DNA of 64,000 nt, from positions 7,218 through 71,217 of the forward strand of contig JBBTLZ010000019.1 in NCBI GenBank assembly GCA_038068435.1. The letters are read 5' to 3'. The translations under genes were made by a program, and so were the position numbers. This DNA is from Candidatus Eiseniibacteriota bacterium. Its GTDB lineage: Bacteria > Eisenbacteria > RBG-16-71-46. The notes under the pieces were generated by a model, which was not told where the DNA came from, did not search any database, and worked only from the letters and a program-made list of their open reading frames with translations. The number at the start of each line of letters is the position of its first letter. Positions within the stretch are counted from its first letter, which is position 1. Positions 35,397 through 39,317 of this stretch are shown piece by piece.

Positions 35397-36317
35397 ATGA
35401 GCCGCCCTGCGCCGGTCGTCTACTCCCCCGAGTACGAGTGCGACATCGGCCGCCATGTGTTCCAGACGGGGAAATTCCGGCTGGTGCGCGATGGCCTGCT
35501 CGCCGCCGGCCTGGTGACGGAGAGCGGCATCATCGCCGCCGAGCCCGCCCCGCGCGCGGACCTGCTGCTGGTCCACACCGCGGAGTACCTGGACGATCTC
35601 GAGCAGCTGCGCTGGACGCCGCGCACCCGCATGTCCGAGCTGCCGCTCACGGCGGGGATCGTGCGCGCCTACGTGCTGGCGGCGGGCGGGACGACGCGGG
35701 CGGCCCGCGAGGCGCTCACGCACGGCGTCGGGGTCCACCTCGGCGGCGGCTTCCACCATGCGTACGCCGAGCTCGCGTCCGGCTTCTGCTACATCAACGA
35801 CCTCGCGGTCGCCATCCGGGTGCTGCAGCGCGACGGGCTGGTGCGGCGCGCGGCGGTCGTGGACTGCGACCTCCATCAGGGCAACGGCACCGCGCATCTG
35901 TTCCGGGGGGAAGACGCCGTGTTCACGTTCTCGATCCACCAGGAGCACCTCTACCCGGTCAAGGAGCGGAGCGATCTCGACATCGGCCTCGAGAACGGCG
36001 TCGGCGACGAGGAGTTCAACCAGCGCCTCGGCGCAGGCCTCGCCCGCGTCTGGGAGCATCGCCCGGAGCTGATCCTCTACCAGGCCGGGGCCGACCCGTA
36101 CGAGGACGACCAGCTGGGGGCACTCCGCCTCACCTTCGCCGGCCTGCTCGAGCGCGACCGGCTGGTGCTCGAGGGCTGTGCCGAGCGCGGCATCCCGGCG
36201 GTGGTGACGCTGGGCGGGGGCTACGCCCGCCGCGTGAGCGAGACGGTCCGCATCCACCAGAACACCTGCGAGCTGGCGCTGCGGCTCGCCGCACGCGCCG
36301 CCGGGCGGACGCGATGA
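35397..36317 (+). CDS. Histone deacetylase / AcuC-family deacetylase
   Basis: GGGFHHA, GFCYINDLA, DCDLHQGNG, GADPYEDD, GGGY. Confidence 0.93.
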   Translation: MSRPAPVVYSPEYECDIGRHVFQTGKFRLVRDGLLAAGLVTESGIIAAEPAPRADLLLVHTAEYLDDLEQLRWTPRTRMSELPLTAGIVRAYVLAAGGTTRAAREALTHGVGVHLGGGFHHAYAELASGFCYINDLAVAIRVLQRDGLVRRAAVVDCDLHQGNGTAHLFRGEDAVFTFSIHQEHLYPVKERSDLDIGLENGVGDEEFNQRLGAGLARVWEHRPELILYQAGADPYEDDQLGALRLTFAGLLERDRLVLEGCAERGIPAVVTLGGGYARRVSETVRIHQNTCELALRLAARAAGRTR

Positions 36318-37270
36318 TCCGCGCCTGGCACGCCGACGCGGCGGGCGCGCGCGAGGTGCCGCCCGCCGAGGCGGCGCGGCTCGCCATGTCGGGCCCGGGC
36401 GCGGTGTGGGTGGACGTCGAGGGCGAGGACGAAGCCGCCGCGCGGGCGCTGCTGGCGCCGCTCGGCATCCATCCGGTCGCGCTCGACGATGTGGTCGCGC
36501 ACATCAACCGGCCGAAGGTGGACGATTACGGCGCGTACCTTTACGTCGCCGTCCACTCCGCGCGCTGGGAGACCGACGGGCGACCGACGCTGCGCGAGCT
36601 CGACCTGCTGGTGGGCGAGCGCTTCCTGGTCACCTACCACGAGGCGGCCACGCGCTCGGTGAGCTCCGCGCACGCGGTGCTCCCGCGCCGCCCCGAGCTG
36701 CTGGCGCGCGGGCCGGCGCACCTGCTGCATTTCCTGCTGGACGTGCTGGTCGACCACTATATGCCGATCACCGAACGGCTCGCGGCCGAGATCGACAGGC
36801 TCGAGGAGCGGATGTTCGGCCGACGAGACGAGCGCATGGACGAGGGCATCCTTCGGCTCAAGCGCGGCCTGTCGGCCCTGCGTCGGATCGTCGGCCCCCA
36901 GCGCGACACCGTACTGGCGCTCACGCGCGACGAATTCCGCGCCGTGCCGGCCGAGGTGCGACCCTATCTGCGCGATGTGTACGACCGGCTGGCGCGCGTG
37001 AGCGACCTCCTCGACTCGTTCCGGGACGAGGCGGCCACGCTGCTGGAGCTGCACGTGGCGATCGTCTCGAACCGGCTCAACCAGGTGATCAAGGTGCTCA
37101 CGGTGATCGCCACGATCATGCTGCCGCTGACGGTGATCACGGGCTACTACGGAATGAACTTCCGGCTGCCGGAGTTCGCGTGGCGGTGGGGCTGGCTCTA
37201 CGCGCTCGGGTTGCTGGCCGCGACCGCCGCCGGCACCTGGTGGTACCTCAGGCGGCGGCGCTGGTTCTGA
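36314..37270 (+). CDS. corA: CorA-family Mg2+/Co2+ transporter
   Basis: RPKVDDY, LDVLVDHY, LNQVIKVLT, YYGMNF (GMN motif), two C-terminal TMs. Confidence 0.93.
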   Translation: MIRAWHADAAGAREVPPAEAARLAMSGPGAVWVDVEGEDEAAARALLAPLGIHPVALDDVVAHINRPKVDDYGAYLYVAVHSARWETDGRPTLRELDLLVGERFLVTYHEAATRSVSSAHAVLPRRPELLARGPAHLLHFLLDVLVDHYMPITERLAAEIDRLEERMFGRRDERMDEGILRLKRGLSALRRIVGPQRDTVLALTRDEFRAVPAEVRPYLRDVYDRLARVSDLLDSFRDEAATLLELHVAIVSNRLNQVIKVLTVIATIMLPLTVITGYYGMNFRLPEFAWRWGWLYALGLLAATAAGTWWYLRRRRWF

Positions 37271-37288
37271 CGCCGCGGGGGCGCATCG

Positions 37289-37310
37289 CCCGCGCGTGAA
37301 AACGCGCGGG
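37289..37310 (+). terminator. 9-bp GC stem with GAAA tetraloop after corA
   Basis: CCCGCGCGT-GAAA-ACGCGCGGG; no U-tract, so it may be a processing or stability hairpin. Confidence 0.45.
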
Positions 37311-37320
37311 GCCGGATCCC

Positions 37321-37705
37321 GCGGCTCGGGCAGCCTGGCGTGGGCTGCAAGGGCCCACGCTGAGATCCGGTCCCCGCACTCCTCGCGGTGCCACGACGGC
37401 GCACGCGCCAGCCGTAGACACACGAACGAACACGATGTCCATCGGAGAGCGGGGACCCGGGGCGGGGACCGGTTGCTTCTGTCGGAGGGGGGGCCTCCAA
37501 GCGACTCGGCGTACGAGAGGGAACCACTTCGGGCAAGTGATTCGAACGCCGCACAGCCCCCTTGCCGCGAGGCCCTCCGGCGTTTCGTGTGACTCACCTC
37601 GCTCGTGAAGTCCCACGACCGTCATCAGGCAGGTCCCGTGCAGCGAACGGGACCCCGGCTCGGGTAAGAAAGCTCCTTGCCAGGGAGTTCTTTCTGCCCA
37701 GCTGC
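37321..37705 (+). ncRNA. Candidate large structured RNA of unknown family
   Basis: 590-bp gap between convergent genes; ends pair (GCGGCUcGGGCAG / CUGCCCAGCUGC); at least six internal helices; G.U-versus-A.C asymmetry mostly favours the plus strand. Confidence 0.5.
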
Positions 37706-37711
37706 AACGGA

Positions 37712-37741
37712 AGTTTGGACCCCAGGTCAGCGGCCTGTCAA
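37712..37741 (-). promoter_or_regulatory. Sigma70-like promoter reading into the structured region on the minus strand
   Basis: TTGACA (37741-37736)-N18-CAAACT; no convincing minus-strand CDS downstream. Confidence 0.4.
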
Positions 37742-37859
37742 GAGTCGAGTCCCGGCGTTCCGAGACGCCGCGCGCGGCGCGGGATCCCGAGACGACACCA
37801 CGGCACGCCGCGCGCCACCGGCCCCCGCAGGACCCGCGCGTCGCGCGACGAGAACCTGT

Positions 37860-39104
37860 TCAGGGCGTGGCGACGCCCTTGGGCTTGGGCTTCTGCACCG
37901 ATCCCGGCTTGGCCGGTGTCGTCGCCGGCGTGCCCGCCGGCGATGCGCCGCGCGCGGGGCCGATGACCTCGAGCGAGGCATCGTCGAAGTACACGCGCCC
38001 TTCGGCCGGGGCGTTGTAGAGCAGCCAGGCCCAGACCTGGTAGGCGTCCTTCGGGACGTCCATCTCCATCTGCAGCCTGGTCCACGGCGTGGTGTTGCCG
38101 ACCAGCTGCGGCGCGCCCACGTGCTCGTCCTGCTTCAACGTGGTGCAGTAGAGCTTGATGTAGGCCTGGCTCATCAGGCTGTCGCACTTGACCCAGCCCG
38201 TGAGGCGGAGGCGCTTGCCGGCGAGGCTGCGGTTGCCGATCAGCTGCGCGACCGCCGCGCGGGTCTTCACCATGCCGATGGTCCCGCCCGTGAAGCGGAT
38301 CGAAGCCTTGCCGGAGTGCACCACGGTGGTATCACGGTCGCAGCGCATCTCGTCGTAGGGAGGCAGCGAGTACTCCCAGCGGTCGCCATTGCCCTCGAAG
38401 CCCGGGTCCTCGAGCAGGTTCACGCCCACCGGCAGTTCCGGCGCGGGCAGCGCCTCCTCGGCGGTCAACGAGGCGTCGTCGAAGAACACCTGGCCGGTGC
38501 CGAACAGCCCGCAGCGCGCGATGATCAGGTTGGTCGACGGCGGGATGAACACGCGGACCTGGCGGCGCACCCAGTCGGTCTCGGGGTCGGAGAAGTACTC
38601 CCGCTTCATGCCCAGGTAGACATAGGGATCGGTGGTCGTGAACAACCCGAGCCGCGCGAGGACGGTGTCGCGCGGCACCTTCCAGAGCCGCGCCATCTTG
38701 CCGACCGTGTCGCGGTACGCCTGCAACAGGATGTAGGCCCGGCCCTGCACGCCGTTGCTGCGCGTCCACACCGAGAGCACGACATCCTTGTTCCACATCT
38801 CCGGGCCGACGACGAGGGTCTGGCTCCAGTTGTGCCAGAGCGGGACCAGGGTGCTGACGTTCGCGACGCTCACCGAGTAGCGACCGCCGTGGGCGACCAT
38901 GGTGTCGCGACCGAAGAACACGGTGGGCATCTCGCTCCACGAGGTGTCCCACGCGGCTGGCATCCACGGATGGGCGGCCATCGTGTTCTCGAATCCGGGA
39001 TCGGCCAGCAGGTTCCCGGTGGGGGCGGCCAGCGCGGGGCCGGCGAGGCACGCGATGAGCGCGCCGAGCGCCGGCGCGATGCGCAGGGCGGGGCGACGGG
39101 ACAT
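37860..39104 (-). CDS. Exported protein with tandem carbohydrate-binding (CBM4/9-like) modules
   Basis: Signal peptide; two GNLLADPGFE / VNLLEDPGFE starts; Trp-rich beta-sandwich patterns; no catalytic domain evident. Confidence 0.7.
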   Translation of the reverse strand: MSRRPALRIAPALGALIACLAGPALAAPTGNLLADPGFENTMAAHPWMPAAWDTSWSEMPTVFFGRDTMVAHGGRYSVSVANVSTLVPLWHNWSQTLVVGPEMWNKDVVLSVWTRSNGVQGRAYILLQAYRDTVGKMARLWKVPRDTVLARLGLFTTTDPYVYLGMKREYFSDPETDWVRRQVRVFIPPSTNLIIARCGLFGTGQVFFDDASLTAEEALPAPELPVGVNLLEDPGFEGNGDRWEYSLPPYDEMRCDRDTTVVHSGKASIRFTGGTIGMVKTRAAVAQLIGNRSLAGKRLRLTGWVKCDSLMSQAYIKLYCTTLKQDEHVGAPQLVGNTTPWTRLQMEMDVPKDAYQVWAWLLYNAPAEGRVYFDDASLEVIGPARGASPAGTPATTPAKPGSVQKPKPKGVATP

Positions 39105-39317
39105 GGAGCACATTCCTTTCGGGAGCAGTCCTGAGCTCGGAGGAGTTCGAGGCACGAGCAGCAAGCGAAAAGTATCCGCAGCCGGCCCGCGGGGGGTCAA
39201 GGGGATTCTCCTCGCGTGGGGATTCTCCTCGCGGTTGCGGTCGCGCGAAGCGCTCGGCTAGATTCGCGCGGTCGCGTCCCACATGTCCTGAACTTGTTCC
39301 GCCGCCGGGAGCCCCGC

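Follow-up and report, generated by a model that had tools for sequence, protein, structure and literature searches.

A probable stand-alone non-coding RNA gene with a complex conserved fold next to corA in Candidatus Eisenbacteria

This locus raises the question of what is encoded in a gap of 589 bp between two convergent genes, the plus-strand Mg2+ transporter gene corA and a minus-strand open reading frame of 446 amino acids. The gap lies in the window, that is, the whole 64,000-nt stretch of DNA that was analysed, which comes from a 65%-complete metagenome-assembled genome of the uncultured phylum Candidatus Eisenbacteria. To our knowledge, no member of this phylum is in culture. The gap lacks a credible coding sequence, as the earlier note on this DNA had judged; in alignments of relatives it carries a non-coding signal, with compensatory changes and with indels that are not multiples of three.

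The earlier note proposed an undescribed, structured RNA of 385 nt, closed by a terminal helix and read on the plus strand or in both polarities. An undescribed, structured, non-coding RNA is borne out by covariation beyond controls and by the lack of a corresponding Rfam family. The conserved unit is smaller, at about 225 nt, is closed by an internal helix (P1), and is encoded on the minus strand. A real and new minus-strand non-coding RNA gene is very likely at this locus. The best explanation overall is probably a stand-alone gene of this kind, the founding example of an undescribed family, with a trans-acting RNP or regulatory role. The features of the locus are collected in Table 1.

Table 1. 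Features of the RNA gene and its surroundings, in window coordinates; RNA nucleotide 1 is window position 37705, read on the minus strand.
Feature	Position	Strand	Remarks
corA, Mg2+ transporter	36314..37270	+	start approximate; stop 37268-37270; Pfam CorA E=1.7e-66; convergent with RNA gene
U tract GCGUUUUCA	37298..37301	-	after closing stem of 3' module; likely intrinsic termination point
3' module, 73-nt three-way junction	37306..37378	-	closing stem 37306-37319/37365-37378, 14-15 bp
3' module, hairpin B	37322-37334	-	
3' module, hairpin A	37339-37361	-	GCGUGGGC/GCCCACGC
Variable linker	37379..37477	-	two tandem C-rich copies (CCGGUCCCCGCC, CCGGGUCCCCGC) at 37447-37470; poorly conserved even in the genus
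Core RNA, helices P1-P7	37478..37705	-	about 225 nt; covariance model R1, 217.6 bits here
P7 hairpin UUGGAGG-CCCCC-CCUCCGA	37482..37500	-	helix 12; C-rich anti-Shine-Dalgarno-like tract
P6, two-part hairpin	37508..37550	-	helices 10-11; GCCC apical loop 37530-37533; conserved CCCUC internal loop
P1, closes 5' domain	37700-37705 (GCAGCU) with 37553-37558 (GGCUGU)	-	6 bp
P3/P3a	37656-37664 with 37559-37567	-	
P5, extended hairpin	37572..37630	-	helices 6-9; stem length varies; invariant apical loop GAGCGAG 37598-37604
P4 hairpin	37631..37655	-	helix 5; invariant loop CGCUGC at 37640-37646
P2 hairpin GAAAG..CUCCyU-GGC-AGGGAG..CUUUC	37668..37694	-	near-invariant sequence; 98-99% paired
J1/2 GGGC	37696..37699	-	invariant, unpaired
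-10-like hexamer CAAACT	37712..37717	-	18-nt spacer; family consensus cAnA(a/c)T
-35 box TTGACA	37736..37741	-	RNA's own promoter; TTGAC in 128/128 distinct homologues
Upstream co-oriented gene	37860..39113	-	ORF 37860-39200, 446 aa; signal-peptide-like N-terminus

The genome of the window contains one copy of the gap. Of 41 relatives, 27 retain it, among them all seven remaining genomes of the genus and the majority of genera in the family. When 20 of these loci were aligned with MAFFT, the plus-strand heptamer TGTCAAG (CTTGACA in minus-strand reading) proved invariant. It is followed by about 30 variable bases and then by a near-constant block of 223–232 nt, in which stems vary compensatorily and loops are fixed. 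Homologues measure 216–236 nt, save for a few that are truncated by contig ends or bear insertions. Read on the minus strand, G-U and U-G pairs number 271 in the paired cells of the alignment, compared with 65 combinations of A with C in either order, and the RNA strand is therefore minus.

The same strand is indicated by the promoter. The earlier note had seen a TTGACA promoter pointing antisense through its RNA; the promoter stands, while its antisense role does not, as it is invariant, lies at a fixed distance and belongs to the RNA itself. Among the distinct homologues with enough flank, the box lies 34–37 nt upstream of nucleotide 1, most often at 36 (83 of 128), and its sixth position, A, is kept in 85%. 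Anchored on this box, the -10 element shows A, A and T at hexamer positions 2, 4 and 6 in 68%, 65% and 72% of homologues, with a family spacer of 17–18 nt. A simple consensus scan over the locus called neither a promoter nor a terminator, and the promoter was missed because its -10 element matches TATAAT at only three of six positions. The assignment is drawn from conservation, which suggests an invariant sigma-70-type -35 box paired with a weak -10 element; transcription would start at about position 37705.

The fold of the core was derived from 39 distinct homologues, aligned with MAFFT (alignment A1) and passed to RNAalifold, whose consensus contains 71 pairs in 12 helix segments. In A1, 90.2% of cells are paired, compared with 42–49% when the partners are slid by one to three columns, and 46 of the 71 pairs show compensatory changes; none of 500 shuffles equalled the observed values. 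The search for homologues was then widened with covariance model R1 to 84 distinct sequences, metagenome contigs included (alignment A4). Here 91.8% of cells are paired (37–49% with slid partners) and compensatory changes occur in 60 of 71 pairs, figures that are biased towards the model's own structure, to which A4 was fitted. The homologues and covariation that the earlier note had wished to see looked for are thus present. A mutual-information scan, which is blind to structure, placed all of its top 33 column pairs within the proposed fold. It found no extra tertiary pairs, because the candidate partners are invariant.

The first 150 nt or so form a domain closed by P1 and organised around two three-way junctions (P1/P2/P3 and P3a/P4/P5), after which P6 and P7 follow. 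Invariant nucleotides are concentrated in loops and junctions, in the motifs GGGC, UGGCA, CGCUGC, GAGCGAG, GCCC and CCCUC. Support in A4 extends to the individual helices: P1 is paired in 98.6% of cells and has compensatory changes in four of its six pairs, P4 is paired in 95.8% with all nine pairs compensated, P6 is compensated in 14 of 15 pairs, and P7 in all seven, with 80% of cells paired. In one genome (G121, loci L054/L104), an insertion of about 27 nt within P5 extends the RNA to 252 nt, and P5 is therefore a variable-length site.

Several helices drawn in the earlier note from a single sequence coincide with this fold and are backed by covariation. AGAAAG-CUCC/GGAG-CUUUCU is P2, GGUCCCGU/ACGGGACC is P4, GUGuGACU-CAC/GUG-AGUCcCAC is P5, GAAcCACUU/AAGUGaUUC is the upper part of P6, and hairpin A of the 3' module was likewise correctly recognised. 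Others give way. For the proposed terminal helix (37321-37333/37694-37705), complementarity is confined to this genome; across relatives, it is an internal AGCUGC (37553-37558), and not the suggested 3' partner, that covaries with the invariant 5' GCAGCU. This helix is rejected because hairpin B, in which its 3' partner lies, changes without compensation in relatives, and because most genera lack the 3' module altogether. Two further pairings, GCCUGG/UCAGGC and CGAACGCCG/CGGCGUUUCG, clash with the conserved P5 and P6, and CCGGUCCCCGC/GCGGGGACCGG has a covarying competitor in the closing stem of the 3' module.

Tertiary contacts are suggested by complementarity between conserved loops. One possible pairing joins the J1/2 GGGC to the GCCC in the loop of P6; both are invariant except in the low-scoring homologue L103, which does not compensate. 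The kissing loop of the earlier note (UCGCU/AGCGA) joins the loops of P4 and P5. Its two strands are indeed complementary and both loops are invariant, while the kissing itself is possible and of a kind that covariation cannot prove. The pentamer GCUGC is present in the P4 loop, CGCUGC, and also in the consensus for the 3' strand of P1, where this genome has GCUGU. Each copy is complementary to the 5' end of the RNA, GCAGC, for which an alternative pairing is possible. Three A1 sequences have a GCGGC 5' end, and in these the P1 partner compensates; the P4 loop, as read in L009, stays GCUGC.

Thermodynamic measures are less telling. The folding z-score is -0.88 for the 228-nt core alone and -2.3 for a 410-nt long form, and the conserved structure lies about 12 kcal/mol above the predicted minimum free energy for this genome's sequence. 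The z-scores proposed as a check in the earlier note, taken over its 385 nt, are -2.0 on the plus strand and -2.7 on the minus strand, modest values that on thermodynamic grounds alone come near to arguing against the RNA. Since the z-scores are weak, the evidence for structure is comparative and not thermodynamic. In a genome of 70% G+C, the weak value for the core is no argument against a real structured RNA.

In this genome, P7 is not followed by a U tract. The linker downstream of it leads to a three-way junction, the 3' module, which is followed by one; relatives have UUUUUC, AUUUUCUU or CUUUCUU at the same position, and the terminator scan did not call the tract. The module is itself well supported: in an alignment of nine sequences (A3), 94.6% of cells are paired, compared with 31–49% for slid partners, and its G-U pairs fall on the minus strand. 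Model R2, built for the module, finds a single copy per genome in only three genera, the window's own among them, always just downstream of the core. Because P7 lacks a U tract here, the transcript of this genus probably ends at the 3' module, and would run through the linker to the U tract-bearing junction (37298-37378), for a length of about 410 nt, not far from the size given in the earlier note.

Within this longer transcript, the C-rich copies of the linker are both potential partners for the G-rich 5' strand in the module's closing stem, rivalling its proper 3' strand. One such pairing is the 11-bp helix of the earlier note. The competition looks like a choice between terminator and antiterminator, and covariation speaks neither for nor against the alternative pairing. 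In other lineages, the C-rich tract sits in the loop of a different hairpin. Three homologues of family f3 (L099, L101 and L102) have a U run immediately after P6 (GUUUUU, GUUUCAU and GUUUGUCUU). In these, P6 may be a candidate terminator, and the C-rich tract would then fall outside the RNA.

The RNA is restricted to one order of the phylum. Among 206 Eisenbacteria genomes, 88 have a full-length R1 hit, one each save for one genome with two; 81 of them belong to family f1 and seven to family f3, and no hit was obtained in family f2 or in other orders. A permissive R1 search of 18 negative genomes returned nothing at E<=0.1. Three genomes of family f1 (G137, G139 and G124), with completeness of 90–96%, gave no hit even at E<=0.1; because these well-completed genomes lack it, the RNA may be dispensable. 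The genome with two hits (G146) has them on different contigs and shows 4% contamination. The RNA was also found on 107 metagenome contigs from soil and sediment; all 80 that were examined match R1, and all but four are full length. None of the viral contigs searched carries it. An RNA-derived element, a circular form and expression in both polarities, each raised in the earlier note, fit poorly with a single-copy, syntenic chromosomal gene that is absent from viral contigs.

The neighbouring genes are partly conserved. Of 119 distinct homologues, 112 have the unannotated upstream gene next to the RNA gene and in the same orientation; in family f3 it is missing from this position. Its product matched nothing in searches of Pfam and of the PDB. 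It is about 415–446 aa long and contains two internal repeats, each beginning NLL(A/E)DPGFE. On the downstream side, 65 of 102 distinct homologues have a convergent corA, family f3 included, and corA is the only neighbour common to the loci of f1 and f3, whose CorA proteins are only about 50% identical to each other.

Known RNA families do not account for the locus. At the gathering threshold, Rfam 15 gave no match in the window or in the loci of 19 relatives, as the earlier note had anticipated for a novel RNA. When the E-value limit was relaxed to 10, the window yielded only chance matches (E 2–10), and six divergent homologues searched in permissive mode had no match at the RNA; the chance matches across these searches were mir-23, petD D5, Scr6925, sX15, ACAT and sR60. 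The earlier note had found no signature of RNase P, tmRNA or SRP RNA, and each of these, as well as 6S RNA, was located elsewhere in these genomes. RNase P RNA (RF00010) has no match in the window; the genome has a 263-bit copy on a different contig (G000:C41), and 20 of 25 relatives also have one. 6S RNA (RF00013) was found at G000:C110 (55 bits) and in 23 of 25 relatives, and the RNA here has a branched fold. ARAGORN detected no tRNA or tmRNA at 36000-39000, and tmRNA (RF00023) scores above the cut-off elsewhere in 21 of 25 relatives. SRP RNA (RF00169) has no match at the locus and lies away from it in 16 of 21 relatives.

Other identities are set aside on different grounds. A riboswitch or other cis-acting leader would precede the gene that it controls, and the gene downstream of the RNA is convergent at the loci examined (the next gene in each of six f3 loci with listed open reading frames; corA in the homologues counted above). 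No DnaA boxes occur within 300 nt upstream in 63 homologues, and identity as a DnaA-box-associated sRNA is rejected. In the literature searched, no paper was found that reports an RNA family in Candidatus Eisenbacteria, nor one on the RNA here. As judged from these searches, the family is undescribed and without an Rfam model, although lineage-specific structured non-coding RNA genes are, as a kind, already known.

What the RNA might do is suggested mainly by how strongly it is constrained. Its roughly 225 nt hold 71 covarying pairs, two multi-helix junctions and about 50 invariant nucleotides, a constraint far above that of a typical base-pairing sRNA, and the fold is unusually complex for an RNA of this size. 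A compact, specifically recognised tertiary fold is suggested by how densely invariant nucleotides occur in the loops and junctions, and by the L4/L5 and J1/2-L6 complementarities. In such a fold, L4 would kiss L5 and the GGGC of J1/2 would pair with the GCCC of L6, and the RNA would work in trans, either by binding protein specifically (RNP) or as a regulator, and would not be a cis leader. The role put forward here, tentatively and with odds a little short of even, is that of a trans-acting protein-binding or scaffold RNA. The tertiary contacts and the protein partner are candidates only, and the nucleotides that would make the contacts are invariant.

The closest company for such a molecule is found among the few orphan bacterial RNAs with complex folds, a set in which several members have proved biochemically unusual. 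Several of the large orphan RNAs assemble into ordered multimers. Like the raiA motif RNA, OLE, ROOL, GOLLD and HEARO, the RNA here is a stand-alone gene with many covarying helices in multi-way junctions; it shares with them invariant junction and loop nucleotides, restriction to particular lineages, and neighbours that are uninformative about function. It matches none of their Rfam models, however, and is smaller than OLE, ROOL and GOLLD. It also differs from the set in being confined to two Eisenbacteria families, at one copy per genome, with no link to phages or mobile elements. As a single-copy, housekeeping-style gene with a strong -35 box and clade-wide conservation, it further resembles 6S RNA and Ms1, which are abundant RNA polymerase-binding RNAs. 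These are rods with a central bubble, in contrast to the branched fold here, and a canonical 6S RNA is encoded elsewhere in these genomes.

A different trans-acting role, as a base-pairing sRNA, is unlikely but deserves the most attention among the alternatives. Under it, conserved unpaired C-rich motifs would mask G-rich Shine-Dalgarno regions and block translation. Such motifs are present, as CCCCCCCUCC in or near the P7 loop, as CCCUC in the P6 internal loop and as GCCC in the P6 loop; different lineages present the C-rich tract in a hairpin loop by means of different stems, and the gene stands alone with its own promoter. CCUCC is the anti-Shine-Dalgarno core, and the C-rich loops of 6C RNA (Actinobacteria) and RoxS/RsaE (Firmicutes) bind Shine-Dalgarno regions and block translation. 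The RNA here resembles them in having its own promoter and in displaying unpaired C-rich motifs that are conserved and could bind G-rich ribosome-binding sites; one such motif sits in the loop of a 3' hairpin. The RNA here is, however, three times larger, has an elaborate conserved 5' domain and matches no Rfam model, and its C tract is not clearly within the transcript in every lineage, since part of family f3 has the U run after P6 and perhaps leaves the tract outside. Typical base-pairing sRNAs conserve a seed, and conservation of the seed only is unlike the many covarying pairs and invariant junction nucleotides seen here. CCUCC would, moreover, pair with nearly any strong Shine-Dalgarno sequence and so confer no specificity. 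A target search with GGAGGGGGG had the RNA gene itself as its sole match within the window.

The recurrence of corA invites a functional link to that gene. In general terms, the RNA could represent a new class of functional RNA with a sophisticated biochemical role, unlike an ordinary sRNA. Its invariant loops and two junctions would then form a fold that senses a ligand or metal, or else a machine made of RNA only or of RNA and protein, with an output coupled to corA by controlled read-through via the terminator/antiterminator-like pairings of this genus; this is improbable. More narrowly, and with slightly lower odds still, it could be a riboswitch-like sensor, perhaps of a metal ion, whose folding would set whether transcription terminates at P7 or the 3' module or reads through antisense to corA. 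The sharing of corA alone between f1 and f3, despite the divergence of CorA, would suit such a sensor, and the two C-rich copies in the linker permit alternative terminator and antiterminator pairings in this genus. Riboswitch-controlled antisense or sRNA transcripts have precedent in AspocR (Listeria) and EutX/Rli55 (Enterococcus/Listeria), in which, as here, a structured RNA without a downstream open reading frame faces a convergent gene. Unlike these, the present RNA contains no known aptamer and matches neither the M-box nor any other riboswitch model. Linkage to corA holds for only about 64% of homologues, with some 36% lacking corA downstream, the 3' module is limited to three genera, and the alternative pairing is without covariation support.

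The remaining explanations fare far worse than that of a trans-acting minus-strand RNA. That the plus strand is the functional one, as a structured corA 3' UTR or terminator region or through expression in both polarities, is very improbable. The element does lie directly downstream of corA on the plus strand, and most of its helices could form on either strand, but the 271 G-U pairs of the minus strand would become A-C mismatches, against 65 in the other direction; the minus-strand -35 box is invariant at a fixed distance, and the element is kept where corA is not adjacent.

A self-cleaving ribozyme is scarcely credible. In this genome, CUGAUGA (37618-37626) and CGAAAC (37583-37588) flank the P5 stem, within a stretch of the minus strand (37577-37658) that could be read as hammerhead-like, and a stretch of the plus strand (37338-37457) could be read as HDV-like; a complex conserved fold with no assigned function also invites the idea. 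CUGAUGA is nevertheless found only in L001 and L002, the loci of this genome and its closest relative, its place being taken in close relatives by CUGAAUG, UCCACGG or CGGAACG. Models of the hammerhead and of HDV give no match even with the limit at E<=10. Of the HDV-like region, 37379-37457 is variable linker with indels and 37338-37378 belongs to the minus-strand three-way junction. On this comparison, the CUGAUGA/CGAAAC pair resembles the hammerhead core by chance. The position between convergent genes and the long stem around the three-way junction of the 3' module might suggest a palindromic repeat of REP or MITE type, or some other selfish element. This is equally hard to credit, and REP, REPIN and MITE identities are rejected, given that the gap occurs once in its own genome, that the R1 core and the R2 module each occur once per genome (R1 twice in one genome) and in synteny, and that the RNA is absent from viral contigs.

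With an alignment, a covariance model and an assigned strand and promoter, the family is ready for submission to Rfam, for metatranscriptome mapping, for chemical probing and for structure determination.

One feature of the upstream region varies between genera. The genus of the window has GACTCG, and no palindrome-like site, just upstream of the -35 box. In one group of genera, seven homologues (L026, L045, L047, L039, L050, L029 and L048) carry at this place, about 40–58 nt upstream of the RNA start, a conserved palindrome-like sequence, for example TCGCAA-N4-TTGCGA or TTGCACTTGCA, which may be a candidate regulator-binding site.
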